This document shows, one piece after another, positions 4,007 through 50,004 of a stretch of DNA of 64,000 nt. Below the pieces are notes generated by a model. It did no database searches. It was not told the origin of the DNA and saw only the letters and a list, made by a program, of their open reading frames with translations. The stretch covers positions 44,841 to 108,840 of the IMG/VR virus record IMGVR_UViG_3300044617_000796. One strand, written 5' to 3'. This stretch comes from a virus. Each line of letters opens with the position of its first letter. The first letter of the stretch is position 1. A program made the position numbers and the translations under genes.

Positions 4007-5020
4007 CTAAGAGAAATTATTTTCGTAGAAAACTATTCTTTCAAGAATTTTATCTGCAACGCTTGACCAAGAGTGCTCGTTGTGCAGTGTGCGTGCAGAT
4101 TGAATTGTATATTTTTTAAACTCATCATATTCAGAAACAACATGAGTCATAAGATCCATCAATTGTTCCATATCAGGATAAGCCCATAACCCTGTGTCTT
4201 CACCGTACTGATGGCTATTCCAATCCGCATTACCCATCTTGCATGAAAGAGGTATTGAATATTTTGCAAAATCACTACATCCAGTTGCATCTGTCACAAT
4301 TGTTGGCATACCAGTACAAATTGCTTCAAAAGGTATCATACCAAAACCTTCACCACTAGTTGGGTAAACAAGGCAATGACATTTGTGATAGAGCTTAACT
4401 AAATCCTCCGTGCTTAAGTTATCTGGAATACCGTATATTTGAGGATGCTGAATAGCTGGAACAAGATTGTTGTCAATATAAACTTCTGCCTGGCAAAAAC
4501 CATTGTATTTAAGTACAAGCTTAAAGTCATCATTACCTTCATAAAGATCAAGAAATGCATCAACAACCATTTGCGCATTTTTTCTTTTTGAATCACCGCC
4601 AACATGCAAGAAATTAAATGTCCCTGTGACTTCTCTATCAATTATTTTGAATTCATCAGAGATGCCGTGCGGAATAACATGAATGTTATGATGCACATTG
4701 TTTTGAATATATACATCTTTTACAAAATTAGATGTAGCCCATATCTCATCCATTTGTTGCATGTTGTATTTCCAACCAACTGGGATTTTGGTTGACTCCC
4801 AAGGAGTATATCCTACCTTGTATAAACTCTGCATTTGATAGTAATGAGGCTGACAGAAGTTAACATGGAAAGGTATTTCATTCCTATTGTAGAACACAGC
4901 TACATCTTTCTCTCTAAGAGCAGCAATAGTGCTAATAGCCGCATTGCTATAGCCTTGACTATACCAATGGACACCACTAACATCAATACTACCAGGACTA
5001 AACCAGCTGATTTTTTTCAT
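4007..5020 (-). CDS. Glycosyltransferase, GT-B/GT4-like
   Basis: RKN...VYPTSGEGFGMIPFEAICTGMP (EX7E-type motif). Confidence 0.9.
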   Translation of the reverse strand: MKKISWFSPGSIDVSGVHWYSQGYSNAAISTIAALREKDVAVFYNRNEIPFHVNFCQPHYYQMQSLYKVGYTPWESTKIPVGWKYNMQQMDEIWATSNFVKDVYIQNNVHHNIHVIPHGISDEFKIIDREVTGTFNFLHVGGDSKRKNAQMVVDAFLDLYEGNDDFKLVLKYNGFCQAEVYIDNNLVPAIQHPQIYGIPDNLSTEDLVKLYHKCHCLVYPTSGEGFGMIPFEAICTGMPTIVTDATGCSDFAKYSIPLSCKMGNADWNSHQYGEDTGLWAYPDMEQLMDLMTHVVSEYDEFKKYTIQSARTLHNEHSWSSVADKILERIVFYENNFS

Positions 5021-10192: not shown

Positions 10193-10264
10193 GCCCCTTT
10201 AGCTCAGCGGTAGAGCACTTCACTTGTAATGAAGCGGTCCTCGGTTCAATTCCGAGAGGGGGCT
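10193..10264 (+). tRNA. tRNA-Thr(UGU)
   Basis: Cloverleaf GCCCCTT/GGGGGC, anticodon arm CTTCA-CTTGTAA-TGAAG, T loop TTCAATT; no encoded CCA. Confidence 0.95.
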
Positions 10265-10286
10265 CTGATATAAGGAGTAATATAAT

Positions 10287-11025: not shown

Positions 11026-11101
11026 TGGCGAGTAGCTCAGTTGGCAGAGCAAGGGACTGTTAATCCCTGGGTCGTAGGTTCAAACCCTACCTCGCCAGCC
11101 A
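11026..11101 (+). tRNA. tRNA-Asn(GUU)
   Basis: TGGCGAG/CTCGCCA acceptor stem, AGGGA-CTGTTAA-TCCCT anticodon arm, TTCAAAC, encoded CCA. Confidence 0.95.
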
Positions 11102-12691: not shown

Positions 12692-12865
12692 ATGGCTATC
12701 TATCATTACCGCTGCCACAACCAGCACACCTACGAAGAGTCTAGAAAGATGTCTGAAGAACCTAGAGTAGTTACATGTCCTGAGTGCGACCTACCTCTGA
12801 AACAAATATTCTCCCCGCCAGGAATCAACTTCAAAGGTCATGGCTTCTACCGTAACTCTCGGTAA
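12692..12865 (+). CDS. FmdB-family zinc-ribbon protein
   Basis: MAIYHYRCHNQH...CPECD...IFSPPGINFKGHGFYRN (57 aa, manual translation). Confidence 0.88.
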   Translation: MAIYHYRCHNQHTYEESRKMSEEPRVVTCPECDLPLKQIFSPPGINFKGHGFYRNSR

Positions 12866-12919
12866 TACACCCAATCATTATTACTACCCCGCAAATTAGT
12901 ATCTGTGTATACTGATAAA

Positions 12920-13009
12920 GGCAGCGAAAGCTAACCTTAGGACCGTTATAGGTGCAGATGCCTCTGGGCTCAACCCCCAGGGGCATGTGCATGTGTAGCG
13001 GTCTTTTTT
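12920..13009 (+). ncRNA. Candidate structured small RNA (~90 nt)
   Basis: Own TG-TATACT at 12908-12913, 5' AGC-GAAA-GCT hairpin, long stem GACCGTTATA/TGTAGCGGTC enclosing ATGCCTCTGGG/CCCAGGGGCAT, ends in T6. Confidence 0.65.
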
Positions 13010-13207
13010 ATTCTCCCCCAAACTTTTATACTCCTATACCCGCCCTGAACCTTCCTATCCCAAATTTGAGTATACATTTTATGAATGTTACTTTTACTTT
13101 TAGACGCACTGGAAAATCCTGTGTTCACTAGGGTCAATCGCTGGAGTGCGATTCTGCTTAAGCAAAGAATTGTACACCAGCGATTGGGAAAGCGGATACA
13201 AAGGAAA

Positions 13208-13239
13208 TTGAATACACATTTTCTCTCAAATGCTATTGT
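13208..13239 (+). promoter_or_regulatory. Cassette 1 promoter
   Basis: TTGAAT-N20-TATTGT with TGc extension. Confidence 0.75.
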
Positions 13240-13280
13240 AATTTGTGTCAAGGCAATCCCGCCGAGACAGAGAGGACAGT

Positions 13281-13514
13281 ATGATTACTGAACACTGGAC
13301 ACGACAGAATGAGTTGCGTGAGCGTGAGCGCATGGCACTACGCTTGCTCAACCATATCCTGTCAATGACAATACCCGTTGAGGCTAATGACGATTGGTCT
13401 TGCGTCAAGTTCAACCTCAAATTAGAGGGCGGTTCCATTACCGTAATGACAGGCGCACAATATCACCCGTCATGCAATATGTACGAGGTCATGGAATACG
13501 AGGTACAGCGATGA
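13281..13514 (+). CDS. Cassette 1 gene a, hypothetical
   Basis: GAGG SD after 5' stem-loop; MITEHWTRQ... Confidence 0.75.
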   Translation: MITEHWTRQNELRERERMALRLLNHILSMTIPVEANDDWSCVKFNLKLEGGSITVMTGAQYHPSCNMYEVMEYEVQR

Positions 13515-13603
13515 AGTACCTACCACGCATTGGCTTCGGCATTGTGATTGGTTGCTTGGTTCTGATGATTGTTCAGACCATCGCCCACGCCTTTACAATG
13601 TGA
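13511..13603 (+). CDS. Cassette 1 gene b, 30-aa single-TM peptide
   Basis: GAGGT SD, ATGA overlap, MKYLPRIGFGIVIGCLVLMIVQTIAHAFTM*. Confidence 0.65.
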   Translation: MKYLPRIGFGIVIGCLVLMIVQTIAHAFTM

Positions 13604-13607
13604 GCCC

Positions 13608-13652
13608 GAACCCCGAATGCCTCCCCCCTGAGGCATTCGGGGTTCTTTTTTT
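13608..13652 (+). terminator. Intrinsic terminator T1
   Basis: GAACCCCGAATGCCTC/GAGGCATTCGGGGTTC plus T-run. Confidence 0.9.
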
Positions 13653-13791
13653 GTCCCTGCACCCGCCCTATCGCATGTCTGTTCCAATGAACTTTAATAC
13701 ACTCACAACACACATGCGATCGGGTGGTGGGCAAGGGCGCTTCAGCATTGCAATTGCACACCAACTGTTGAGGATCAGAGCATGAACGAGA

Positions 13792-13823
13792 TTGAATACA
13801 CATTTTTCCTCACATGGTATGTT
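13792..13823 (+). promoter_or_regulatory. Cassette 2 promoter
   Basis: TTGAAT-N20-TATGTT, TGg extension. Confidence 0.8.
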
Positions 13824-13868
13824 TATTGTTATCGGAACACACCTAACCCCGATGAAAGGACAAAGACC

Positions 13869-14177
13869 ATGAGTGAAAGAATATGTTCATATCATAGTTG
13901 GAACTACTTGTATGAAGTGCACCCAAGCGGTAAGTACTTCATTGCATACCAGTTCAGTTACGACAATAAAGAGAGACAAGTTATTGCCGTAGTTGACCGC
14001 TATGTAACAGATGACAAGTGGGCTGCTATGCGTTGGTGCAGGGCACAGTATGACCTTGAGGTTGAACCTTGGGACAGAAGTGCTGAAGCCAACGAGATTA
14101 GGGAGAGTGCAAGGGTTGCCTTGCATGAACTCCACGAGTTGGAGAAAGAACAGGACAGGTATCGTATCTACGGGTGA
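13869..14177 (+). CDS. Cassette 2 gene, hypothetical
   Basis: AAGGA SD; MSERICSYH... Confidence 0.75.
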   Translation: MSERICSYHSWNYLYEVHPSGKYFIAYQFSYDNKERQVIAVVDRYVTDDKWAAMRWCRAQYDLEVEPWDRSAEANEIRESARVALHELHELEKEQDRYRIYG

Positions 14178-14182
14178 TACCA

Positions 14183-14210
14183 TCTCCCCTCGCCTTTGGG
14201 CGGGGGGAGA
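14183..14210 (+). terminator. GC-rich hairpin T2 (no U-tract)
   Basis: TCTCCCCTCGCC-TTTG-GGCGGGGGGAGA; nearly identical to T6. Confidence 0.65.
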
Positions 14211-14342
14211 ACCCCGACCTAATTGCGAACGATCATACATGTTTTTTAATACACATTCTCACAAGAAAAAATCATTGGTGTGCGGAGCTGCTTCAGCGAA
14301 AGATTTGTGCACCAACGAATAGGGCACATGCTCTCAACAGCG

Positions 14343-14374
14343 TTTAATACACATTTTTTACAAGATGGTATGTT
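14343..14374 (+). promoter_or_regulatory. Cassette 3 promoter
   Basis: TTTAAT-N20-TATGTT, TGg extension. Confidence 0.8.
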
Positions 14375-14420
14375 TATTTATGTCAAGGACACTCCCTAAC
14401 ACCTTGACAGGGAGATAGCA

Positions 14421-14612
14421 ATGAAAAAGCGGACAGAAGTTAGTCCAAACCACCCAGTCGCAAGACTGACACTGGAACAACAATTCATGGTTGTTGCAGG
14501 CGCACTCAATCGTGCTACCCAGCAGGGCAACACGAAAGGCATTCAGGGCTTGGCAATGATGCTCAAGGGTTACGAGGAAGCAATAGCCAAGAAGAACCAA
14601 GAAGCCAAGTAA
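14421..14612 (+). CDS. Cassette 3 gene, hypothetical
   Basis: GGAGATAGCA-ATG. Confidence 0.8.
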   Translation: MKKRTEVSPNHPVARLTLEQQFMVVAGALNRATQQGNTKGIQGLAMMLKGYEEAIAKKNQEAK

Positions 14613-14629
14613 TACCCTAATCCCCCCAG

Positions 14630-14665
14630 TCCCCTCAAGCCGAAAGGCTTGGGGGGATTTTTTTT
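14630..14665 (+). terminator. Intrinsic terminator T3
   Basis: TCCCCTCAAGCC-GAAA-GGCTTGGGGGGA plus T8. Confidence 0.9.
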
Positions 14666-14803
14666 GCCTAAACACCAGCGTTCTCACATGACCATACCCT
14701 TTATCTTTAATACACATTCTCATCACACAAGAACGGTGGTGTGCAAAGCTGCTTCAGCAAAAGATTTGTACGCCAACGAATGAGGTACACACTATCAACT
14801 CTC

Positions 14804-14835
14804 TTTAATACACATTTTCCATCAGATGGTATGGT
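14804..14835 (+). promoter_or_regulatory. Cassette 4 promoter
   Basis: TTTAAT-N20-TATGGT, TGg extension. Confidence 0.75.
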
Positions 14836-14879
14836 TATCTTGTTCCTAGCAATCCCGCTAGGACAGATTGGAGATAGCA

Positions 14880-15101
14880 ATGAAAATTATGGTTACTATC
14901 CAAACCCCGACTTGCCCCGAATGCGGGCATTGGGGCGAGATCCAAATGACCCGTGATGAATGGGAGTTTGGCAAGACGGCTAGTTGGCAGGGCGAACTCA
15001 TTCAGAATTGTTTCCCTACCCTTACCCCAGCCCAGCGTGAGCAACTCATGAATGGCTACCATTCAGAGTGTTGGGATAAGATGTTTGCGAGTGCAGAATG
15101 A
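14880..15101 (+). CDS. Cassette 4 gene a, small Zn-binding protein
   Basis: GGAGATAGCA-ATG; CPEC...IQNCFPTLTPAQREQLMNGYHSECWDKMF. Confidence 0.8.
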   Translation: MKIMVTIQTPTCPECGHWGEIQMTRDEWEFGKTASWQGELIQNCFPTLTPAQREQLMNGYHSECWDKMFASAE

Positions 15102-15337
15102 GCCCGCAATTACTGGAGACTATCCTCCACGCCGTAGCAGACCTACGGATACCCAAGACTGACGGGGTAATCATTGAGGCTCTCAAGATACCCCGTGAGA
15201 TATTCCAGCAAGACGGTGTAGAGTGCCGTAAATACAAGCGGAGTGTTGAGCATCAGATACGCACTCACCCCGCTATCAAGCCAGTACTTGTCTGGTGGAC
15301 AGTACACGGTGACTGCTACTTGACAAGAGCAGACTGA
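15098..15337 (+). CDS. Cassette 4 gene b, hypothetical
   Basis: ATGA overlap with gene a; stop just before terminator. Confidence 0.7.
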   Translation: MSPQLLETILHAVADLRIPKTDGVIIEALKIPREIFQQDGVECRKYKRSVEHQIRTHPAIKPVLVWWTVHGDCYLTRAD

Positions 15338-15342
15338 AACTT

Positions 15343-15376
15343 CCCCCTCGTGCCTTCGGGTGCGAGGGGGTTTTTT
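15343..15376 (+). terminator. Intrinsic terminator T4
   Basis: CCCCTCGTGCC-TTCG-GGTGCGAGGGG plus T6. Confidence 0.9.
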
Positions 15377-15516
15377 CATGTCCAACACCAGTCTTTCCGT
15401 ATGCCATTGCCCATTGTCTTGAATACACATTCTCATACGAAAAAAAGAATGGTGTACGGAGCTGCTTCAGCAAAAGCTTTGTGCACCAGCCGAAGGGGTA
15501 CACACTCTCAACTACA

Positions 15517-15548
15517 TTGAATACACATTTTTCATGATATGTTATGTT
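15517..15548 (+). promoter_or_regulatory. Cassette 5 promoter
   Basis: TTGAAT-N20-TATGTT, TGt extension. Confidence 0.8.
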
Positions 15549-15595
15549 TATTCATGTCAGCGATTATCCTAACCCCGCTGGCAAGGAGAAAGCAA

Positions 15596-15853
15596 ATGAA
15601 ACGAGTACCTAAAGGCTCTGTCAAGGTAATGAAGCGTGGGCGCAGTAAGTTCCATGACCCGTACCTTGCCAAGTGCGTCAAGGCAGTAAGCAACACTTAT
15701 GATATTGTTGCAACACAAAGGGCAGTACCGAACACGATAGCCAACAAAAACCGTGTTCGTTCCCGCATTATGAGCCTTGCAGGAAACAAAAAACTTGGCG
15801 TGAATTGGTACGCTGAGGGCAAACTTGTAGTGCCAGTAATCACCAAGAAATAA
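15596..15853 (+). CDS. Cassette 5 gene, basic RGR-motif protein (distant paralogue of cassette 7/8 genes)
   Basis: AAGGAGA SD; KRGRSKFHDPYL...NKNRVRSRI...GVNWYAEGKLVV. Confidence 0.8.
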   Translation: MKRVPKGSVKVMKRGRSKFHDPYLAKCVKAVSNTYDIVATQRAVPNTIANKNRVRSRIMSLAGNKKLGVNWYAEGKLVVPVITKK

Positions 15854-15869
15854 GGTCGCTTCTCCAGCG

Positions 15870-15903
15870 AACCCCCAAGCCTACGGGCTTGGGGGTTTTT
15901 TTT
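15870..15903 (+). terminator. Intrinsic terminator T5
   Basis: AACCCCCAAGCC-TACG-GGCTTGGGGGTT plus T-run. Confidence 0.9.
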
Positions 15904-16044
15904 GTGCCTGAACGCCAGCGCCATAGCAAAGTCATAACCAGTTGGTTGAGCACATGTTCTCTCTCTTGATATGTCGTTGGCGTGCGGATTGGGTTTACCA
16001 AACAATTTGAACGACAACGAAAAGGGTACAGGGTCTCAACGGCA

Positions 16045-16076
16045 TTGAATACACATTTTTGATGACATGGTATGTT
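16045..16076 (+). promoter_or_regulatory. Cassette 6 promoter
   Basis: TTGAAT-N20-TATGTT, TGg extension. Confidence 0.8.
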
Positions 16077-16122
16077 TATAGATGTCAAGGACATTCCATA
16101 CCCCCTTGACAAGGAGATAGCA

Positions 16123-16389
16123 ATGACACACCTACCCGAACACCCAAGAGCACTCACGATTGCTCATGAGGATGTTGTCAAAGTTGCCTTGCAACTGAAA
16201 GACAACCTCATCACCAGAGGCGAGATGAATGCTCAGATGCTCAGCATTGTGGTTGGCATGAAAGTTGCCCTGCGCCAAGAGTTCATTGGCGAAGTGCAGG
16301 ACAAGTTGAGCGACATTGAGCAACTGTTCACAGATGTTCAAGGCTCAATTGAGGAAATGGATTACCTCACACTCTTCCAACCAGAGTGA
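16123..16389 (+). CDS. Cassette 6 gene, helical/coiled-coil hypothetical
   Basis: AAGGAGATAGCA-ATG; MTHLPEHP... Confidence 0.8.
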   Translation: MTHLPEHPRALTIAHEDVVKVALQLKDNLITRGEMNAQMLSIVVGMKVALRQEFIGEVQDKLSDIEQLFTDVQGSIEEMDYLTLFQPE

Positions 16390-16404
16390 TTGTTCCTTCC
16401 CCCG

Positions 16405-16439
16405 CTCCCCTCGCCTTCGGGCGGGGGGAGTTTTTTTTT
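16405..16439 (+). terminator. Intrinsic terminator T6
   Basis: CTCCCCTCGCC-TTCG-GGCGGGGGGAG plus T9. Confidence 0.9.
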
Positions 16440-16578
16440 GCCTGAACTCCAACTTTTCCCATATGCCATGTCTCTTTGCTTGAGTACACATTCTCACACT
16501 GGAAAAAAAGCTGGTGGGCGGATCTGCTTTAGCAAAAGATTTGCACTCCAGCCAATGAGGAAGCGAAACGAAACCAGG

Positions 16579-16610
16579 TTGAATACATATTTTTAGCGTA
16601 ATGCTATATT
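16579..16610 (+). promoter_or_regulatory. Cassette 7 promoter
   Basis: TTGAAT-N20-TATATT, TGc extension. Confidence 0.8.
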
Positions 16611-16676
16611 TATCTCATGCCAAAGCGATTAGGCTGAGGCAACACACTGCGGTGTGTATAACCAAGGAGATAAGCA

Positions 16677-16988
16677 ATGCCAAAGGTAAACCTAAGCGAC
16701 CTCAAAGGTCAGTTATCATCTCGTGGGCGAGCCCCGTATGACAACCCTGAACTTGAGGCTGAAATCAAGAGCCTTGACCCAGCCATTGATGGTGATGCAA
16801 CCATCTATGAGGGCAGTCAAGGAGACCCATCAAGCGAGGACTACACGAACCACAAAGCAATGTGGCGTGGGCGTGCCGAGACAATTGCCGACAAGAACGG
16901 CATTGCCATCAGCGTGCAGTGGCTCACCACTGGTCAGATGGTTATCTCGCTTGCCAAGCCTGCAAAGGGCAAGAGCAAGCGCAAGTAA
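16677..16988 (+). CDS. Cassette 7 gene, RGR-motif protein (possible DNA binding)
   Basis: AAGGAGA SD; clear paralogue of 17309..17614. Confidence 0.85.
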   Translation: MPKVNLSDLKGQLSSRGRAPYDNPELEAEIKSLDPAIDGDATIYEGSQGDPSSEDYTNHKAMWRGRAETIADKNGIAISVQWLTTGQMVISLAKPAKGKSKRK

Positions 16989-17010
16989 CCGCATCTCCTG
17001 CGGTTAGTAT

Positions 17011-17045
17011 AGAACCCCCGTACTTCGGTACGGGGGTTCTTTTTT
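17011..17045 (+). terminator. Intrinsic terminator T7
   Basis: AGAACCCCCGTAC-TTCG-GTACGGGGGTTCT plus T-run. Confidence 0.92.
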
Positions 17046-17210
17046 GCTGGCGTTCATCCCGTGCTGAAGCACAATGAACGCCAGCTTTGCGACACATGCC
17101 ATTCTCTCATTTTTAGTACAGATTCTCAATCCCATTCCCTGGCGGGCGTGCGATTGCGCTTTAGCGATGCAATTGCACACCCGCTGTTGGGGTACCAATA
17201 CGAAACCGAA

Positions 17211-17242
17211 TTGAATACATATTTTCACCATAATGGTATGTT
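17211..17242 (+). promoter_or_regulatory. Cassette 8 promoter
   Basis: TTGAAT-N20-TATGTT, TGg extension. Confidence 0.8.
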
Positions 17243-17308
17243 TATTTATGTCAAAGGCAATACCGCCGAGACACACTCATACCGAGTGTTGAACATGGGA
17301 GAATACCT

Positions 17309-17614
17309 ATGGCAAAGATAAACCTCAATGACTTGCAAGGCATGCTGTCCAAGCGTGGGCGTGAGGCGTTCCACGATGAGACACTACAAGCCGAGATTGT
17401 TAGCCTTGACCCAAAGGTTGAGGGTGACGCATTCATTTGGGATGACGCACAGGGTAATCCAAACGATGAGGATTACACAAACCACAAGGCTAAGTATCGT
17501 GGTCGTGTTGAAACCATTGCAGAGCGCAACAATGTCGCTGTGTCCGTTCAATGGACTACAGACGGGCGTTGCGTAGTCTCACTCGCCAAGCCTGCCAAAG
17601 GCAAGCGCAAGTAA
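17309..17614 (+). CDS. Cassette 8 gene, RGR-motif protein (paralogue of cassette 7 gene)
   Basis: GGAGA SD; MAKINLNDLQG..KRGR..EDYTNHKA..RGR..SVQW..SLAKPAKGK. Confidence 0.85.
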   Translation: MAKINLNDLQGMLSKRGREAFHDETLQAEIVSLDPKVEGDAFIWDDAQGNPNDEDYTNHKAKYRGRVETIAERNNVAVSVQWTTDGRCVVSLAKPAKGKRK

Positions 17615-17635
17615 CCCTTACCCCGTAAGGCGTGT

Positions 17636-17670
17636 AGAAGCCCCGTACTTCGGTACGGGGCTTCTTTTTT
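17636..17670 (+). terminator. Intrinsic terminator T8
   Basis: AGAAGCCCCGTAC-TTCG-GTACGGGGCTTCT plus T-run. Confidence 0.92.
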
Positions 17671-18490
17671 GCTGGTGTTCATCCCGTGCTAAAGCACAAT
17701 GAACACCAGTTATCAGAAGGCTTATCGTTACCATTTTTAATATACATATTCCTAATCATAAAGATGGCGGGTGTCCCAAAAAGAAATGCATTTGTTTTTG
17801 TACACCCGCAAAATATAATTAATTTATCGCTTAACTTTATTACATATTTCTAATCATAACTATAAGATTACATATGGCTTTCAAAATGTATTCCAAAATC
17901 TCATAGATAAATACTTATCTAAGGGAGGAAGGTAAAAGTTTACGCACATTTTATTTTTGTTAATCAAATGGGCTGGGAAAGACTTAGCCTGTCTCTCTAC
18001 CTATCGCCTCAGATTACATCAGTGTAATCAAACACTTATACTATTCCTAAATCTATGCATCAACCCGTCATTATTCTGGGTCATCAATCGGTTATAGTAT
18101 TACGCCCCTATATAGTCTAAAAGAGGGGGAATATGTTTGTATTATTCTTATAGATACCCAGTAATAGGGTATTTACATAGGGGAATCTAAATAGATCTCA
18201 ATATCTGAGCTTTTTTGCCCAATTGTTGACCATTTTGGTAGTATTTCTATTAAAAATATTATTAATTAGTGAAAAAAAGACAAAAAAAACACCCAAAAAT
18301 AAGCTTATTTTAAGCCTATAAATGGGTGTTTTCCTTATGTACTATGTGATATATCAGCTATATATTATTGATACATCTATGATATGCCTATGATATGAAC
18401 TCCTGCTATATAGAATATATCTTATACATATTGGAGCGTGTCTCTCTCATACGCTAATGGTTTTTGACACTTATTTTCTATCAATTCAAA

Positions 18491-26495: not shown

Positions 26496-26598
26496 AATTA
26501 AGAATGATCATGAACTCCGATTTATTTGAATGTGTGTACCCAAGAAATTGAGTATACATTTTCACTAAACCTAAGAGTTTATAATGACAATATCTTAG

Positions 26599-26672
26599 CG
26601 TATCCGATAGGACTTGAACCTACAACCTAAACATTAGAAGTGTTTTGCTCTATCCAATTGAGCTACGGATAC
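26599..26672 (-). tRNA. tRNA-Arg(UCU)
   Basis: GTATCCG/CGGATAC, AAACA-CTTCTAA-TGTTT anticodon arm, GTTCAAG T loop. Confidence 0.93.
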
Positions 26673-31672: not shown

Positions 31673-32160
31673 TACATCTCCTCTATATAGTTAATATAAT
31701 CTTTATATGTTTCTTTTGTTGGATATTGAATTGTTAGCCTGATAAACTCAAGCAAACATTTAATTTTGTCTTTGAAGGACAAAAACTTTTCTATTTCAAG
31801 ATACTCTTCAAATGTATCTGCATGTGTTTTATAAACAAACTTACCTTGATCATAAGATGTAAATGGCTTTAACCAACCATTACTTCTACCATCTGTAGAG
31901 AACCCAGAATAACCATAAGCAACTGCAATATTCATTGCTTTATCAAAGAAATAATATTGCACCGCTTCATAAATAATTTCATTTGTTTCATCTGAGTTCA
32001 GAGGGTTAAAATTCAGATGATGCATTTTAATATTAATAGCCAAACGACCATTGTGAATATCTTTATCTCTGTCAATACTAGACCAGTTATATTGAACCCT
32101 TTCTTTTTTATAAAATTCAATATCTCTATTATCTGAGTATACATTTTTCATATAAGACAT
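31672..32160 (-). CDS. Hypothetical protein
   Basis: LAINIKMH...DGRSNGWL. Confidence 0.75.
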   Translation of the reverse strand: MSYMKNVYSDNRDIEFYKKERVQYNWSSIDRDKDIHNGRLAINIKMHHLNFNPLNSDETNEIIYEAVQYYFFDKAMNIAVAYGYSGFSTDGRSNGWLKPFTSYDQGKFVYKTHADTFEEYLEIEKFLSFKDKIKCLLEFIRLTIQYPTKETYKDYINYIEEM

Positions 32161-38572: not shown

Positions 38573-39011
38573 AATTATCTCCTTTAGTATTTAGTTATTT
38601 ATTTAGTTAATCAATTAATTATTTATTTCGGGACAGAAAAAAACCATAACATGAGTTTATCAGTTAATTTTATTGAAACTACAGTAAGTGAAAAAGAATT
38701 TAAAAATTCTTTTTTTGGTGAGGAGAAACGACAATTGAATGTGCGTTAAAATGTGATCGCTTTGATAAATAGATTATGAAAGCGTTAGCTGAACAGATCA
38801 AAGCTCGCTTATGATATCTAATCCACGATCATGAGATTAGATTTAATGTGAAAACTACTTTTAAAATCGTTAATAGATTGCTAAAGTCAATGGTTTGAAA
38901 TACCATTAAAATTATTAACACCACCCTAATTTTATCATTATACTACGAAATTGAGTATATATTTTTCCTGGGTCTGATGTTTTACTACTGATTTACATTT
39001 TCCAGTAGATT

Positions 39012-42409: not shown

Positions 42410-43003
42410 TTAATTTTCATCATCATCATGTTCAATTGCATCCTCAACAATTTTTGTTACTTTACCACTCATAATTTCAAATGCAATTTCAAGTTCCTTA
42501 CGGACTTCATTTGCAATATCTGGGTACTTTGAAATAACATCACGCAAAATCTTTGACAAGATCTGATTAACATTCTCTGCCTTTTGCATTCTGGCAATGT
42601 ATTCACCGTCAGTTTGGTTCCCGCCCATAAGCTTGTGCAGCTGAGCTTTCTTTGTTGCCAAATCTCCAGCCAATTTAATAGCCTGGATTCTGGCTGCAAC
42701 CATCCCATTGTCTGTTGCAATAGTAATAGTCTCCCAGGCTTCTTTGCTTAATTCATCAAACTCAGTAAGAGCTTTGATTGTATTAAACTGAACTTTTTCA
42801 AGGAAAAATGGGTCTTCTTCAATTGTTTGATTTAAAATCAATTTATATTCTTCAATATATTCTTTTATTTCATTTACAGGAATAGACATGAGAGTTGATA
42901 TCTCTCTCATTGAATAACCCTTTACATGCAAAAGACCGACTTGTTCAACATCTTTAATTTTCTCAATCAAGCTTTTCGTTTTAACTAATTCAATATCTGA
43001 CAT
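42410..43003 (-). CDS. Probable terminase small subunit
   Basis: N-terminal HTH (GYSMREISTLMSIP) plus helical body, directly upstream of terL. Confidence 0.65.
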   Translation of the reverse strand: MSDIELVKTKSLIEKIKDVEQVGLLHVKGYSMREISTLMSIPVNEIKEYIEEYKLILNQTIEEDPFFLEKVQFNTIKALTEFDELSKEAWETITIATDNGMVAARIQAIKLAGDLATKKAQLHKLMGGNQTDGEYIARMQKAENVNQILSKILRDVISKYPDIANEVRKELEIAFEIMSGKVTKIVEDAIEHDDDEN

Positions 43004-44016
43004 AATCTATCTATATACCTCTCCGACACTTTTTCCCATGTCATGTTTTCATTTATATATAATGCCGACATGTATGTGCGGTTGGAAATTTCTTCGTAAT
43101 TGTTTACTGTATACAACATTTTATCACATAAATCGTCAAAATCTGGCTTTGCCCAGTGCCCTGTGTCTTGATATATGCCAGACATTTTATAATCCGACAT
43201 TGAGTAATCAAGCGGAATAGAGAGATGAGCAAACTCAGTACAAGCAGAAAAGTTTGTGCATATTGTTGGTATGCCCTTCGCTATGCCCTGGAATGGGAGC
43301 AGCCCCCACCCTTCTCCACTTGTAGGGTATAATACGCAATCTACTTTATCGTAAATACGACCAAGTTCTTCTGCGCTGACTTCCCAATCAATTATATTAA
43401 TCTGCGGATGATCAAGCTTGTCCTTCATCCCGTTGATAATTGATCTCGCATCAGCTGGTCCTTTGGATTTATAAATCATTTGGTACTGGTCATTCCCACC
43501 AAACAGTTTAATGAATGCGTCAACAGCCACCTGGGAGTTTTTCCTCGTAGATGGGGAGCCGATACTTAAGAAAGTAAATGGTCCTTTCCTGATTCTCTTA
43601 CGAGGAAAATATATCTCAGGGTCAACGCCTAATTGAAAATTATAAACTGGTTTTGTAACTCCACTGTTTATAAAAACAGACCGCATGAAATCAGATGCAG
43701 TCCAGATTTCATCCATTCTGTTTAAATCATCTATCCACCCACCTGGAAGCTGGTTAGTCTCCCAGTACGAGAACCCAATCTTATAATCGCCATACTTGCC
43801 ATAAGATTCTGGCAGGCAGTGATTGATCACCACACCTTCATGAATATCGTTTGTTCTTGCATACCCAATCTGAAGCCCGCTAATTTCTTGCGGACTTTCA
43901 TTTTCAATCTTACGAAAATCTAACCCGCTCTTACTAATGTGCTTTGTTAGATGATATGAAGCATCGCCATAACCTTCGCCAATTCTTGACGAACCATTAT
44001 CTGTCCAAGTGATCAT
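42985..44016 (-). CDS. Glycosyltransferase, GT-B/GT4-like
   Basis: RKN...LYPTSGEGWGLLPFQGIAKGIP; paralogue of 4007..5020. Confidence 0.9.
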   Translation of the reverse strand: MITWTDNGSSRIGEGYGDASYHLTKHISKSGLDFRKIENESPQEISGLQIGYARTNDIHEGVVINHCLPESYGKYGDYKIGFSYWETNQLPGGWIDDLNRMDEIWTASDFMRSVFINSGVTKPVYNFQLGVDPEIYFPRKRIRKGPFTFLSIGSPSTRKNSQVAVDAFIKLFGGNDQYQMIYKSKGPADARSIINGMKDKLDHPQINIIDWEVSAEELGRIYDKVDCVLYPTSGEGWGLLPFQGIAKGIPTICTNFSACTEFAHLSIPLDYSMSDYKMSGIYQDTGHWAKPDFDDLCDKMLYTVNNYEEISNRTYMSALYINENMTWEKVSERYIDRLCQILN

Positions 44017-44768: not shown

Positions 44769-45061
44769 TATCTACCCATACCCTTCTTTTTTTGTTGCAT
44801 TGATTTTCTCCTATCACGCTTCATTTGTTCAGCCTTCCTTTGCATTGGCGATTTTGGCTTCTTGGAAGTAGCAGACAAGTTCCTTCCCTTGCCCCTGAAT
44901 TTTAATAGATCGTACTTGTTACACCAGTTATAAAGACCTTGCGGAGTGATTTCAACATTGTAAGTTTGCTTTAATAACTTCACAATGTCAGTTAAGTTCA
45001 TCCGCTTCTTTACATAGTGCTCATAAAGCCAGCTTTTGTCTTTATAAGGTTCAAGAGCCAT
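44768..45061 (-). CDS. Small basic HTH-like protein
   Basis: YKDKSWLYEHYV...TPQGLYNWCNKY. Confidence 0.75.
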   Translation of the reverse strand: MALEPYKDKSWLYEHYVKKRMNLTDIVKLLKQTYNVEITPQGLYNWCNKYDLLKFRGKGRNLSATSKKPKSPMQRKAEQMKRDRRKSMQQKKKGMGR

Positions 45062-45614
45062 TAGATACCACCATTAAATAATACCAAAGACCAATGCCAA
45101 TTGCGTCAACAATGTCATCATCTTTCAAATTTTCCTCTTCCATCTGGAAGTAATCAGTAATAATATCCCTGACACGATCTTTTCTTTCTTTCTTCTTCTT
45201 AGCCTCTGTGTCAAAAACCATTTTATCTGTTTTAGATATATTTTTATACCCGATTCCTCGCTTCCAAAGAATCGGGTTAATGTCCATAACTTTAAAACAA
45301 TAACCCTGAACAATTCCCCAGGTGTAGCCAATTATATAAGATATAACCCTGCTTGTTTGAAAATTTTGTATATAAACTGATTGCTCAATAATAGTTACGC
45401 TAGGATTATGCTTCTTACAAATTTCCTTTAAACCAGCATTAATTTCATTAAATTTTATAGAAATATCATTTGTTTTTGTAAATTTGATTTTACCGCAATC
45501 AACAAGCTTTAGACCGTTGTTAAAATCAATAACAGCCCAACCTAAAGAATGAGATGATGGATCTATTGATAAAATTCTTTTATCATGAGAATTAACTATG
45601 TTCTTAAGATTCAT
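45051..45614 (-). CDS. ruvC: RuvC-like Holliday junction resolvase
   Basis: ILSIDPSSHSLGWAV, IIEQS, WK..IG, DDIVDAIGIG. Confidence 0.85.
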   Translation of the reverse strand: MNLKNIVNSHDKRILSIDPSSHSLGWAVIDFNNGLKLVDCGKIKFTKTNDISIKFNEINAGLKEICKKHNPSVTIIEQSVYIQNFQTSRVISYIIGYTWGIVQGYCFKVMDINPILWKRGIGYKNISKTDKMVFDTEAKKKKERKDRVRDIITDYFQMEEENLKDDDIVDAIGIGLWYYLMVVSNGS

Positions 45615-45922
45615 TACAGACTATCCCTGACGGAGCCTTCTTCCCAACCCCAACCGACCAGCCTTTGAACATATCTTTCTCTTTTACATTTTTCACAGAT
45701 ATTTTCTTTATTATACCGTGACAATATAGTTTCACAACTTTTTGTTTTACAAATTCTTTTTTTATTTATATTAGCTTTTTTTTCATAATAATTACTTAAT
45801 AGCTTTGCATTTGTAACAATTCTTCTACATTCTGCTGAACAATAAATACTATTATAAGATTTAGCCTTAAACGGTCTACTGCAATCTAAATTTTTACATG
45901 TCCTTTCGTCATCATTAATCAC
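45614..45922 (-). CDS. Zn-finger protein
   Basis: C..C..YCSAEC...CKTKSCETILSRYN..CEKC; likely GTG start near 45922. Confidence 0.75.
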   Translation of the reverse strand: MINDDERTCKNLDCSRPFKAKSYNSIYCSAECRRIVTNAKLLSNYYEKKANINKKRICKTKSCETILSRYNKENICEKCKRERYVQRLVGWGWEEGSVRDSL

Positions 45923-46655
45923 TGTCTCCCCAGCATAAAGCAGCCACATTACAATCTGAACAATGCTTAGATGTTCTCTTGTACGGTCTGTCGGGGATAT
46001 TACCGCTAGTGTAATTCCCATAAATATCTCTGTATTTCTTAAAGAGCTTGTCTATGAAAGCCTGGTCTTTTTCAATATAAATAGGAAGAATTTCTTGATT
46101 ATTCTTGCATTCATAAATAACAAAACCGCCATCTAAATTCAAGCACTCCATATAAATCTGCGCTTGTCTGTAATGCTCATCCTTTGGCTTGTTGTGCAGT
46201 TTTCTATAATGGAAACCTTCTGAGCTGATTGACTTTAATTCAATCAACTTCTCCCCATGCCAGTTAATAATTCCATCTGCCGTTCCTTCAATCGGGGGCG
46301 ATGAATAAGTAACAGGAATTTCTTCGGCTACCAGTATGCCCATCTCTCTAAAATATCCGTATAGCCTGTCATGAACAGCATGACCATTATCAAAGATTCT
46401 AAGCGTTTGCGCTCTAAAGTCTGGAGTTACGCTAACCCCATCAAACATATAATACCAATAGCGTGAACATTGGTTGGTATAGCTTGGGTGAAAACCCTTA
46501 ACTTTTTTAAATTCTGGCTTATTTCTTTCCGTCAGACTTTCGTCAATAGCTTTATTTAAACTATCTACTAACTGAGCGGTAGTAAAGCTCTCCTCTGGAA
46601 CTTCCACTGCGACTTCTACTGGCTTTGGATTCCTCAATACTTTTAGTGATTTCAT
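45915..46655 (-). CDS. Cas4-like PD-(D/E)XK exonuclease
   Basis: CSRYWYY, GHAVH, GTADG, IELKS, QAQIYM, C-terminal CSDC-x5-C. Confidence 0.88.
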   Translation of the reverse strand: MKSLKVLRNPKPVEVAVEVPEESFTTAQLVDSLNKAIDESLTERNKPEFKKVKGFHPSYTNQCSRYWYYMFDGVSVTPDFRAQTLRIFDNGHAVHDRLYGYFREMGILVAEEIPVTYSSPPIEGTADGIINWHGEKLIELKSISSEGFHYRKLHNKPKDEHYRQAQIYMECLNLDGGFVIYECKNNQEILPIYIEKDQAFIDKLFKKYRDIYGNYTSGNIPDRPYKRTSKHCSDCNVAALCWGDSD

Positions 46656-47692: not shown

Positions 47693-48940
47693 TCACTCTC
47701 CTAAGTGTTTCGTAATCTCTTGGTCTGTTGGTTGTCTAAAATTAGAATTCATAATTAAATAATTATATTCTTCGTCAGACACCTTCTGCACTGGATTTTC
47801 TTTTGAAAATTTTACACCAGAGCTTGTGCTATACCCAGAGCCTCTTTGAAAATATATATATTTCACCCTAGACACTTTGCCCACAGGCTCAAACATTTCC
47901 ACCCCAACACGCTTAATCAAAGATTTAAGCATCTTATCGCATTGAGATTGCCAGTTGTATTCTTTAATAACTTTAGGGGCTTGCTTATAATAGTAATCAC
48001 ATTGAGCATCAAAATTATCAACTGCGTTCTTCATCAACTCAACGGTTGAGTCAAAATCTGGAAGGATGACATCGCCAGTGTGATAACCAGAGTGCTGTGT
48101 TTTACCAAGAGTTGATTCAATAATATTCTTACCAAGATATTTCTCATACGAACACCATTTGCTTGTTGAGATAGTAGGCATACCTGTTGCTAACGCCTGA
48201 AGAGGTATCAACCCAAACCCTTCACCTTCTGTCGGATAAATTAGGATATCATGATCGTGATATAGCTGAACCATCTCTTCTTGCGAAAGTGTTTTAAATA
48301 TTCTCTTAACATTACTTTCATCACCTTGATTAAAAAGGTCCATAACACTGTAGCCAATTGAATCACCAACCCCGTGATGCTTCAATGTAAGCTCAACATC
48401 CTTACTCCCCCTAAATAACTCAAGAAATGCTGTCTTAACAAGGTCTGCTCTTTTACGAGGACTGTCTGAGTCAACATGAAGAAATCTAATCTTCTTCCGA
48501 TTTCCTCTTTTAAAAGGTGTCCACATATCATCAACACCTAATTCAAAAATATATGTAGGTGTATCAATGCCTGAATTGCGAATCGCATCAACAGAGAATT
48601 GATTGCCTACCCAGATTTCATCAAATGTTTTCATGGTGGGAATCCACCAATCCCAAGCCTTTGTAGCTTCTAAGTATGTGCCATTAATCTTATATTGGTG
48701 ATCATGGTGTTTCTTGAACCCTGGTTGCCTAAAATCATGACCAGTGACAGGGTTATGCCATTCTGGTTCCATATAAAACATTTGAATCTGAGCGGATGGG
48801 TCATTATCCACGACTTCTAATTGTTTACCACGATAAGTAAACTGATTAAAATGTTTTACAATATTGTCGTAGCCATAAGCATACCCAAACACACCGCCCG
48901 CATCTTTAATATGCTGATCAGTATGAATTGAAAATATCAA
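47693..48940 (-). CDS. Glycosyltransferase, GT-B/GT4-like
   Basis: RKR...IYPTEGEGFGLIPLQALATGMP. Confidence 0.9.
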   Translation of the reverse strand: MIFSIHTDQHIKDAGGVFGYAYGYDNIVKHFNQFTYRGKQLEVVDNDPSAQIQMFYMEPEWHNPVTGHDFRQPGFKKHHDHQYKINGTYLEATKAWDWWIPTMKTFDEIWVGNQFSVDAIRNSGIDTPTYIFELGVDDMWTPFKRGNRKKIRFLHVDSDSPRKRADLVKTAFLELFRGSKDVELTLKHHGVGDSIGYSVMDLFNQGDESNVKRIFKTLSQEEMVQLYHDHDILIYPTEGEGFGLIPLQALATGMPTISTSKWCSYEKYLGKNIIESTLGKTQHSGYHTGDVILPDFDSTVELMKNAVDNFDAQCDYYYKQAPKVIKEYNWQSQCDKMLKSLIKRVGVEMFEPVGKVSRVKYIYFQRGSGYSTSSGVKFSKENPVQKVSDEEYNYLIMNSNFRQPTDQEITKHLGE

Positions 48941-49089: not shown

Positions 49090-50004
49090 TCATGAGTTAA
49101 TCTTTTTAAGAATCTCTTTTGATTGTTTATCAGTCAATTCAATTGAGCCCATGCCATTCCATTTGCTTTCCTCATAGGAATACCAAGCGCCCTTGCGTTG
49201 AATAATATCCATCTCAATAGCAATATCAATGATCTCACGATTTTGGTCAATTCTGCCCTCTTGCGGAAGTACATAATAATAACCTGTTGCGCCGATTGTA
49301 GGAATCTGTTTTGTTTTTTCAACAGTCCAGGTCGCTCGTTGTGAGGTAATCATGTTGTTCTCTTCACGCTCCATTTCGCTCTTTGACATGGAAAGAAACA
49401 GCTTGACGATGTTGTGCATGTTGTGATGAACCGTGTTTCCCATTTTGGCTTTTGTTACCGCAAACATTCCGCTCAAGTCAACTGTTTGGTGAGCAACGAA
49501 TAGCATAATGTTACGCTCTTTATGGAGATAGTTCACCAACTTCTGCAGCAGATATCCTTGCGAGCGTGACTGCAAGCCCATTGCTTTACCACCTTCAGGC
49601 TTATCGTAAAACTCTTCCTTAATGATGTTAGATAGTGAGTCAAACAAGAAGATGTGCTTCTCCTTGTCATCTGTCAAATACCCAATCAAGTTCTTCATAA
49701 TGTCTTCTACGATGGTAGATTGGATGATTACTACATCCTCAATGTTTATGCCGCACTTAGCTGCATACGCATCATTATATGATGACTCCGAATCAATGAT
49801 AACAGGGCGATACCCAAGCTTTTGAGCTTCAGCAATAATGCGAAAACACATGGTTGTCTTACCTACCGATGGCGTACCCCAGAATAAATGAGTCGCACCA
49901 GTATTAAGACCACCGCCTAAAGCACGATTTAAACCGATGCTAGGGGTTGGAATAACATCATGAATAGGCATTGTCTGCCCTTTGCGTTTATCTACAATTA
50001 ACAT
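49090..50004 (-). CDS. recA: RecA/UvsX-like recombinase
   Basis: TPSIGLNRALGGG, Walker A GTPSVGKT, IDSESS, FDSLS, IIQRKGAWYSY. Confidence 0.9.
   Translation of the reverse strand: MLIVDKRKGQTMPIHDVIPTPSIGLNRALGGGLNTGATHLFWGTPSVGKTTMCFRIIAEAQKLGYRPVIIDSESSYNDAYAAKCGINIEDVVIIQSTIVEDIMKNLIGYLTDDKEKHIFLFDSLSNIIKEEFYDKPEGGKAMGLQSRSQGYLLQKLVNYLHKERNIMLFVAHQTVDLSGMFAVTKAKMGNTVHHNMHNIVKLFLSMSKSEMEREENNMITSQRATWTVEKTKQIPTIGATGYYYVLPQEGRIDQNREIIDIAIEMDIIQRKGAWYSYEESKWNGMGSIELTDKQSKEILKKINS

Follow-up and report, generated by a model that had tools for sequence, protein, structure and literature searches.

What kind of system places small, mostly unrelated genes behind copies of a single composite element, and how does the content of such an array change? 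The question is raised by an island at 13.0–17.9 kb of the window, i.e., the whole 64,000-nucleotide stretch analysed here, which comprises bases 44841–108840 of the 108,840-bp IMG/VR virus record IMGVR_UViG_3300044617_000796, rated complete and belonging to an uncultured lake/freshwater phage. Eight units stand in a row on the + strand, with a degenerate ninth behind them, and share one grammar: terminator, strand-specific covarying hairpin, box of 15 nucleotides (nt), extended -10, 5'-terminal stem-loop, Shine-Dalgarno sequence (SD) and one or two ORFan genes. We consider it probable that the island consists of small, autonomous transcription units, in an array which resembles the promoter-early stem-loop (PeSL) cassettes of T4-type phages and turns over by homologous exchange, and that it is not an integron.

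The island and its repeated spacer

The eight-unit grammar had been described in an original prediction made from the letters of the window, and every element that it listed was found in its place. The island, judged by eye at that time to be richer in GC than its surroundings, has a computed GC content of 0.45–0.485 (12–17 kb) as compared with 0.31–0.38 in the flanks, and the genome-wide maximum lies within it. The box pattern TTKARTAYAYATTYT, allowing at most one mismatch, gave 18 matches in the window against 1.02 expected, a number reached by none of 100 shuffles; all 18 are on the + strand and 15 of them fall between 13066 and 17750. In the whole 108.8-kb genome the exact box occurs 15 times in the forward and never in the reverse orientation, with no match for the backwards control, and the hairpin core (8 copies) and the extended -10 block (7 copies) are likewise confined to the island when both strands are searched genome-wide. 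Terminator-like sites are also enriched in the region (23 versus 6.4 +/- 2.4 in shuffles): seven GC-rich stems of 12–16 bp with a T-run, mostly closed by the tetraloops TTCG, GAAA or TACG, stand directly 3' of cargo genes, the stem 3' of the second cassette being the one that has no T-run. Rfam, searched at E <= 1, returned only sub-threshold terminator-like noise.

Each spacer of approximately 200 bp contains, from 5' to 3', the previous terminator, box A, a 39-nt hairpin, a 28-nt linker, box B, the -10 element, the stem-loop, the SD and the ATG. Box B is TTGAATACACATTTT and is present in eight copies (13208, 13792, 14343, 14804, 15517, 16045, 16579 and 17211), each followed by 11 nt ending in TGn and then by a TANNNT hexamer (TGnTAnnnT, an extended -10), whose start lies exactly 26 nt after the start of box B in 22 of 22 units from three genomes. 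Taking +1 as 7 nt after the hexamer, box B would cover approximately -38 to -24 and the hairpin -105 to -67, and the distance from the hairpin apex to the box is fixed at 53 nt. The 5' stem-loops, whose sequences differ between cassettes, begin no more than about 2 nt from the predicted 5' end, and the SD stays unpaired. Box A (TTKAATACACATTCT, ending in ..ATTCT) lies 98–99 nt upstream of box B, is intact in five of the seven internal spacers and degenerate in the other two, and has no -10 at the matching offset. The features of the island and the recombination genes discussed below are as follows (window coordinates; lengths of proteins in amino acids, aa):

12692–12865, + strand: c0, zinc-ribbon gene of 57 aa at the 5' edge of the array (Pfam Zn_ribbon_8, E 2.1e-9)
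13066–13280, + strand: spacer 1, with box variant 13066–13080, hairpin 13142–13179, box B 13208–13222, hexamer 13234–13239, stem-loop from about 13246, SD
13281–13603, + strand: cassette 1, c1a 13281–13514 (77 aa) and the overlapping c1b 13511–13603 (hydrophobic peptide of 30 aa)
13608–13652, + strand: terminator 1, 16-bp stem, T-run
13693–13868, + strand: spacer 2, with degenerate box A 13693–13707, hairpin 13725–13763, box B 13792–13806, hexamer 13818–13823, 5' stem-loop, SD
13869–14177, + strand: cassette 2, c2 (102 aa)
14184–14209, + strand: GC-rich hairpin after c2, no T-run
14245–14420, + strand: spacer 3, with box A 14245–14259, hairpin 14276–14314, box B 14343–14357, hexamer 14369–14374, 5' stem-loop, SD
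14421–14612, + strand: cassette 3, c3 (63 aa)
14628–14665, + strand: terminator 3, 14-bp stem, GAAA loop, T-run
14706–14879, + strand: spacer 4, with box A 14706–14720, hairpin 14737–14775, box B 14804–14818, hexamer 14830–14835, 5' stem-loop, SD
14880–15337, + strand: cassette 4, c4a 14880–15101 (73 aa, Cys-rich) and the overlapping c4b 15098–15337 (79 aa)
15343–15376, + strand: terminator 4, 12-bp stem, TTCG loop, T-run
15419–15595, + strand: spacer 5, with box A 15419–15433, hairpin 15450–15488, box B 15517–15531, hexamer 15543–15548, 5' stem-loop, SD
15596–15853, + strand: cassette 5, c5 (85 aa), distant relative of c7 and c8
15869–15903, + strand: terminator 5, 13-bp stem, TACG loop, T-run
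15946–16122, + strand: spacer 6, with degenerate box A 15946–15960, hairpin 15978–16016, box B 16045–16059, hexamer 16071–16076, 5' stem-loop, SD
16123–16389, + strand: cassette 6, c6 (88 aa, acidic)
16404–16440, + strand: terminator 6, 12-bp stem, TTCG loop, T-run
16480–16676, + strand: spacer 7, with box A 16480–16494, hairpin 16512–16550, box B 16579–16593, hexamer 16605–16610, double 5' stem-loop, SD
16677–16988, + strand: cassette 7, c7 (103 aa)
17011–17085, + strand: terminator 7 (17011–17040 plus T-run) and extra hairpin 17046–17085
17112–17308, + strand: spacer 8, with box A (one mismatch) 17112–17126, hairpin 17144–17182, box B 17211–17225, hexamer 17237–17242, double 5' stem-loop, SD
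17309–17614, + strand: cassette 8, c8 (101 aa), paralogue of c7
17636–17709, + strand: terminator 8 (17636–17665 plus T-run) and extra hairpin 17671–17709
17736–17850, + strand: ninth, AT-rich degenerate unit, with box-like 17736–17750, hairpin 17766–17809, box-like 17836–17850, no evident open reading frame (ORF)
45051–45614, - strand: RuvC-like gene (PHROG, E 9e-22)
45915–46655, - strand: Cas4-domain exonuclease gene (PHROG, E 2.3e-42)
49090–50004, - strand: UvsX/RecA-like gene (PHROG, E 6.7e-40)

The cargo consists of ten ORFs of 30–103 aa, of which only c5, c7 and c8 are related (60% identity between c7 and c8, 27% between c5 and c8), the remaining seven being mutually dissimilar, in agreement with the earlier statement that most cargo genes have nothing in common. 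Pfam and PHROGs searches of all cargo found nothing at the curated cut-off apart from the zinc ribbon of c0, c4a giving a weak match to DUF7167, and a PDB sequence search of c2, c4b and c6 found nothing significant. The c7/c8 family, which closes the array in all five phages compared here with 2–3 copies, forms 5 clusters in a search of 5.8 billion proteins and has 39 representatives among 1.84 billion. Its AF2 model (pLDDT 73) had no Foldseek match in the PDB at E <= 0.001, its fused homologues had no consistent partner domain, and in the ESM Atlas it matched unnamed viral clusters only, with scores below 0.9. Most likely, the cargo represents accessory early genes, the immediate expression and the host-takeover or anti-defence roles put forward in the original prediction being hypothetical.

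Cargo turnover in related arrays

Relatives were found by scanning for the composite pattern and with a c7/c8 profile, a scan of viral contigs with the bare 15-mer having given single chance matches only. The same scaffold, with 8–10 copies per array, was found in four related viral contigs, namely G001 (also L127; IMGVR_UViG_3300032321_001491), L149 (IMGVR_UViG_3300042936_001079) and two more distant phages, L153 and L154, as well as in eight metagenome fragments. The arrays of G001 and L149 occupy the locus of the window array, with a c0 homologue upstream (70% aa identity in G001, 58% in L149) and shared flanking genes or DNA downstream; in L153 and L154 the scaffold is also placed at the same locus, and in every relative, these two included, the island is GC-rich between AT-rich flanks. 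The order of cassettes in these arrays is given below, primes marking alleles and X and Y additional genes:

Window: c1ab, c2, c3, c4ab, c5, c6, c7, c8
G001: X, c1', c2', c3, c4a+Y, c5, c6, c7, c8
L146: c1', c2'', c3, c4ab, c6' (no c5)
L138 and L147: ..., c2''', c3, c5 (no c4)
L140: c6', c7, c8
L149: only X, c4b, c7 and c8 in common, in the same relative order, among approximately 12 genes
L153 and L154: nine cassettes each

Differences in cargo range from alleles to whole cassettes. The c3 and c8 proteins of G001 are 100% identical to those of the window; the c1a alleles of relatives, carried together with c1b, are 52–56% identical, those of c2 30–44% identical next to genes that are 84–100% identical, and those of c6 in L146 and L140 45–47% identical. 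Cassette 4 is absent as a whole in L138 and L147 and c5 is absent in L146; in G001 c4b is replaced by an unrelated gene of 72 aa (Y), and L149 carries a c4b homologue (53%) with different partner genes and, at the cassette 1 slot, an unrelated pair of 90 and 29 aa with the same layout. Replacement is nearly complete between L153 and L154, whose last three cassettes (c7/c8 family) are 74–86% identical position by position and whose first six share nothing; the two are collinear, at 68–79% nucleotide identity, from the first c7-type ATG rightwards, the homology ending exactly at that start codon. The original prediction had taken the units to be modular, and this view is upheld by chimeric spacers at three whole-cassette indels and by the allelic and near-complete replacements. 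It had also named the pattern that would speak against it, i.e., relatives keeping the same genes in the same order with no swaps at the element; instead, the cargo of the relatives differs at the element.

The breakpoints could be located in several cases. In L138, the spacer between c3 and c5 corresponds to spacer 4 of the window to just 5' of box B and from there to spacer 5, cassette 4 being lost; in L146, the spacer between c4 and c6' corresponds to the whole of spacer 5 to the SD/ATG, fused to a c6-like gene. Spacer 1 of the window is itself chimeric, matching the c0–X spacer of G001 through box B and then the 5' untranslated region (5'UTR) between X and c1 in G001, which places the crossover in the box B/-10 block. 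A 59.8-kb contig from run X15 has c1, c2 and c6 replaced by unrelated sequence of similar length (286 unrelated nt for c2, and 221 unrelated nt from the ATG of c6 onward), with left-hand joints at 13221 (the end of box B), 13853 (5'UTR) and 16126 (ATG+3). Mapped junctions thus lie in three conserved blocks, 5' of box B, in the box B/-10 block and at the SD/ATG, and never in the hairpin. Two joints in run X13 were put aside: one that "goes back 556" is due to an extra X cassette and not to a circle, and the other (13221->16431) was ignored, one of its sides being only 20 nt long.

The spacers themselves are both conserved and exchanged. Segments from the hairpin to box B are 74–80% identical where the flanking proteins are 58–60% identical, and the spacers of the window and G001 are orthologous by position (78–96% identity). 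Paralogous spacers have a mean identity of 58% in the window versus 78% in L149, which points to homogenisation of the L149 spacers over time. The box differs by lineage (TTGAATACACATTTT in the window, TTKAATACACATTTC in L149, TTGAGTACACATTCTC in L153 and TTTAGTACGGTTTCTT in L154) with the hexamer always at +26; within the hexamer, positions T1, A2 and T6, and mostly the upstream TG as well, are fixed across lineages and the others drift (TATGKT, TAAGKT, TAGTGT). Box A is missing from most spacers of L153 and L154 and is therefore not a core part of the element. Where L154 does have it, upstream of c7/c8-type cassettes (L154:4241–4255 and 4830–4844), box A keeps the dialect of the window, TTTAATACATATTCT, and every box B of L154 has a dialect other than that of these copies; the two boxes therefore do not co-evolve. 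A hidden tandem bipartite unit was also considered and is weakly supported, self-similarity at the 98–99 nt offset being only 17–19/60 against a background of about 15 and strong only where box A is intact, which in L153 and L154 excludes most spacers.

Some further observations concern the boxes and the right-hand end of the array. The variant box TTGAGTATACATTTT, seen at 13066–13080, recurs on the + strand within the block of minus-strand genes at 26548–26562, 32133–32147 and 38951–38965, the copy at 26548 lying 36 nt beyond a minus-strand tRNA-Arg(TCT) gene (26598–26672) and being followed 17 nt later by TATAAT; the copies outside the island could be antisense promoters or regulator sites. 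The ninth AT-rich unit is kept in G001 and leads into an AT-rich gap of approximately 600 bp where the plus- and minus-strand blocks converge, and a tandem-repeat scan of 17.6–19.6 kb found nothing notable there. Directly after the array of L153 (5929–6019) there is a T-tract repeat with a 10-nt period and about seven overlapping copies, which has no equivalent in the gap of the window.

Transcription, the hairpin and the competing explanations

Metatranscriptome data were available as contigs, which report presence in an RNA library and not transcript starts or ends. In one freshwater library, contigs cover c0, c1b, c3, c4a, c5, c7 and c8, with the greatest depth on c7 and c8; they include 12705–12935 on c0, 14424–14622 on c3, 15568–15843 on c5 (a variant allele) and 17266–17613 on c8 (depth 119). 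No contig of RNA library X20 lies over any spacer or extends past a terminator stem, missing contig cover not being used as evidence. In the complete genome, neither region 2 nor region 4 of a sigma-70 factor was found, nor was there a match to a T7-type RNA polymerase, although the latter search had no positive control and does not establish absence; because neither kind of protein was found, it is likely that the host RNA polymerase transcribes the array.

The closest matches of the DnaE-type polymerase and of TerL are in Streptomyces siphophages of approximately 130 kb (38–42% identity). Judged by these proteins, the phage is a distant relative of that group and its lineage is not T4-like. 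An actinobacterial host is a reasonable guess. Promoters of the TANNNT/extended -10 type with a weak -35 agree with such a host. By blastn, no match to the island was found in cultured phages; its 31-mers occur in lake and freshwater metagenomes, in 20 runs from 18 studies dated 2016–2025, and at least half of them are present in 13 runs, 6 of which may be the source sample. Among neighbouring genes, tRNA-Thr(TGT) and tRNA-Asn(GTT) (+ strand, 10193–10265 and 11026–11101) stand a short way 5' of the island, surrounded by methyltransferase, ferredoxin-like and endonuclease V-like genes, and three glycosyltransferase paralogues (phrog_2170) are encoded on the minus strand at 4007–5020, 42985–44016 and 47693–48940.

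Covariation of the hairpin was analysed in 33 distinct copies. Paired cells amount to 93.1%, compared with 84.1% in shuffles (0/500 reach the observed value) and 27–42% with slid partners, and two-sided changes were found in 40 cells versus 13 expected. There are 65 G.T wobble cells when the top strand is read and 3 for the bottom strand, and the top strand folds more stably in 33/33 copies (mean -16.6 versus -10.8 kcal/mol). In L153 and L154, where the hairpin lies 25–28 nt from the box, the inner stems also covary and the top strand is more stable in 8/8 and 8/9 copies, respectively. From these data, the hairpin is predicted to act as a single strand of the sense orientation, either RNA or top-strand DNA. 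The extra hairpins at 17046–17085 and 17671–17709, which follow the terminators of c7 and c8, have an apex (GCTGAAGC or GCTAAAGC) of the reverse-complement type of the main hairpin apex, and counterparts are found 3' of c7/c8-type genes in G001, L149, L153 and L154.

A structured, strand-specific repeat between cassettes, covarying as described and kept at a fixed position in all lineages, would be expected if the hairpin were an attC- or REP-like single-stranded DNA site at which a recombinase inserts or excises cassettes in the manner of integrons or HUH-type elements. This we consider very improbable: no tyrosine integrase (PF00589), serine recombinase/resolvase or Y1 transposase (PF01797) was found in the complete genome in searches with positive controls, which extends to the whole genome an absence of integrases noted earlier for the window; every mapped junction falls outside the hairpin, at the three blocks; and each cassette has its own promoter, unlike integron cassettes. 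What the complete genome does encode are UvsX/RecA-like, Cas4-domain, RuvC-like, SbcD-like and single-stranded DNA-binding (SSB) proteins, the first three, already named in the original prediction, being identified by PHROG matches. Equally improbable is a remnant in which one ancestral cassette was duplicated in tandem, the copies diverged and exchange no longer takes place. Such an origin would account for the paralogy of c5, c7 and c8, for the three c7/c8 copies of L153 and L154 and for the homology of all spacers; it conflicts, however, with the seven of ten window cargo genes that lack mutual similarity, with the chimeric spacers at indels and with the sharp drop in identity at ATG/5'UTR boundaries, from 84–100% in neighbouring genes to 30–45% or none.

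Two further explanations are compatible with a PeSL-like array. It is possible, if on the unlikely side, that the box, perhaps together with the hairpin, is the binding site of a phage regulator in the manner of operators and stoperators, in which case the array would be a co-regulated regulon and its turnover a side effect. The box is an asymmetric 15–16-mer in one orientation only; box B overlaps the -35 region and no -10 is present at the corresponding distance from box A; stoperators offer a precedent (PMC9283540); and the box is lineage-specific (TTGAATACACATTTT, TTGAGTACACATTCTC, TTTAGTACGGTTTCTT) though the downstream c7-type genes are 74–86% identical, as expected for a trans factor that co-evolves with its site. 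On the other hand, no cognate regulator was identified, no repressor profile search having been made; since no integrase was found, an immunity system of the lysogeny type is unlikely; most spacers of L153 and L154 have no box A; and the first four bases of the box (TTGA or TTTA) are also -35-like. Plausible yet doubtful is an RNA role of the hairpin, in transcripts that run past the terminator before it. There it might serve for processing, bind a protein, or be a back-up terminator or an insulator, so that the next promoter is protected and the units stay independent. Such a role would fit the specificity for the sense strand, the compensatory changes and an apical loop that is conserved within each lineage, as well as the position of the hairpin about 8 nt after the terminator T-run in L153 and L154 and the fact that box A offers no clear -10 from which a transcript could start upstream. 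Nevertheless, no U-run follows the hairpin, a stem of approximately 15 bp is short for RNase III, and top-strand single-stranded DNA would leave the same sequence signature.

Under the PeSL-like reading that we prefer, host RNA polymerase would fire each unit separately, the 5' stem-loop would stabilise the short mRNA and the terminator would insulate neighbouring units. Because the same spacer recurs 8–10 times, its conserved blocks can act as portable homology for the deletion, insertion and replacement of cassettes seen in the comparison of relatives, and the exchanges would be performed by the phage's own UvsX/RecA-like, Cas4-like and RuvC-like enzymes. The outcome would be a stable scaffold that has 2–3 genes of the c7/c8 family as its 3' anchor and carries a fast-changing set of ORFans.

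Several observations weigh against this reading. Gene order is conserved in every array wherever genes are shared, so that of the "shuffleable library" proposed in the original prediction the gain, loss and replacement of cassettes stand, and free shuffling does not. The sole hint of a new slot comes from contig L135, in which a stand-alone gene at the c6 slot (1226–1303), with a normal c4a+c4b upstream, shows 54% identity to the c4b homologue of L149 over its first 26 residues; it may represent a cargo family in a second slot, and the contig ends there. Some replacement boundaries lie at gene ends outside the spacer (e.g., c4b/Y in G001), the blocks of identity between paralogous spacers of the window (15–30 nt) are short for RecA-type exchange, no circular or deletion junction within one population was seen in the assembled contigs, and the RNA support comes from contigs of one library. 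Moreover, the hairpin, the best-conserved structural feature, has no role in a PeSL-like array, and a box that is nearly identical within a genome and divergent between lineages is more readily explained by a phage-encoded factor than by a plain host -35. In our judgement it is rather unlikely that the hairpin-plus-box module is the cis site of a phage-encoded co-evolving factor controlling the whole array, via read-through sense RNA or top-strand DNA; the c7/c8 family would be a candidate for this factor because it closes every array. If so, the island would be a new array-wide regulatory scaffold that keeps a library of ORFans expressible during turnover, and not a simple string of host-type promoters.

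Comparison with known systems

Clusters of small genes with many promoters and terminators are found in early regions such as the SPO1 host-takeover module and the T7 class I region, where small early genes are served by several strong host-type promoters. These regions are not built from one repeated element, and we know of no documented cassette-by-cassette turnover in them. Morons of lambdoid and other phages, a concept that reportedly goes back to Juhala et al. 2000 and to Hendrix and colleagues, are single genes with their own promoter and terminator, atypical base composition and variable presence, all of which are seen here. They differ in being scattered single insertions with unrelated control sequences that are often expressed from prophages, whereas in this array 8–10 units share one standardised element and no integrase was found.

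Integrons also combine tandem small, mostly unrelated genes with a structured strand-specific repeat between them and a content that varies between relatives. The array has no IntI, a promoter and terminator for each cassette, and junctions outside the hairpin, and the integron reading fails because its three defining features (IntI, a fixed junction in the hairpin and promoterless cassettes) are lacking. IS200/IS605 and REP/RAYT systems differ in their cognate Y1 (HUH) transposase (PF01797), none of which was found here. Closer in appearance are the operators and stoperators of Cluster A phages (PMC9283540), asymmetric sites in one orientation at promoters and intergenic gaps, as are the 15 exact copies of the box, all on the + strand, and the SAS/ESAS repeats of Cluster K phages (PMC3203893), which are short, asymmetric, lineage-specific and in one orientation relative to transcription. 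In contrast to both, the sites of the present array are confined to one island and not genome-wide, and no repressor or integrase was identified. In ESAS, inverted repeats stand next to gene starts (PMC3203893), whereas the inverted repeat found here lies upstream of the promoter and not beside the SD, and covaries in the manner of a single strand.

The nearest precedent is the PeSL family of the T4-type phages RB49/phi1, PST and nt-1, composite terminator-promoter repeats that flank ORFans and provide the homology at which indels and replacements take place, no dedicated recombinase being involved (PMC2839356, PMC4122927). The array shares with PeSLs, at the level of sequence, an intergenic composite of stem-loop terminator, sigma-70-like promoter and SD before the next ATG; many repeats of the motif flank small ORFans in a hyperplastic, variable region; where close relatives differ by an indel or a replacement, a chimeric repeat remains, with crossover points that vary; and general phage recombination genes are present with no dedicated recombinase. 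The claim of novelty made in the original prediction was therefore too strong, since the logic is that of PeSLs (PMC2839356, PMC4122927); of the precedents that it named, PeSLs hold in this respect and the integron analogy fails on the features tested.

The differences from PeSLs are nonetheless considerable. The lake phage is not a T4-type myovirus, the lineage in which the PeSL family was defined, and we know of no report of PeSL-mediated shuffling of modules outside the T4-type phages. At roughly double the length, the element has an added covarying, sense-strand-specific hairpin and a 5'-terminal mRNA stem-loop; a lineage-specific box of 15–16 nt, often with a second box, replaces the standard -35/UP element; and the units form one contiguous array of 8–10, with a conserved gene family at its end. 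Mini-circles as well as promoter and terminator activity belong to PeSLs; in the present system, promoters and terminators are predicted from sequence. The new features are a covarying hairpin added to the element, its rigid geometry and a phage lineage other than T4.

The array would thus represent the same evolutionary device, arrived at independently and in a more standardised form, in an uncultured freshwater phage clade seen in five genomes and several lake populations. It is a natural, well-defined system in which to follow the upkeep and renewal of a phage's stock of small accessory genes, the usual place of host-takeover and anti-defence functions. The element is also a compact set of predicted parts (a terminator, a fixed-geometry promoter and a 5' mRNA stabiliser), together with a well-supported structured hairpin and a lineage-specific box.

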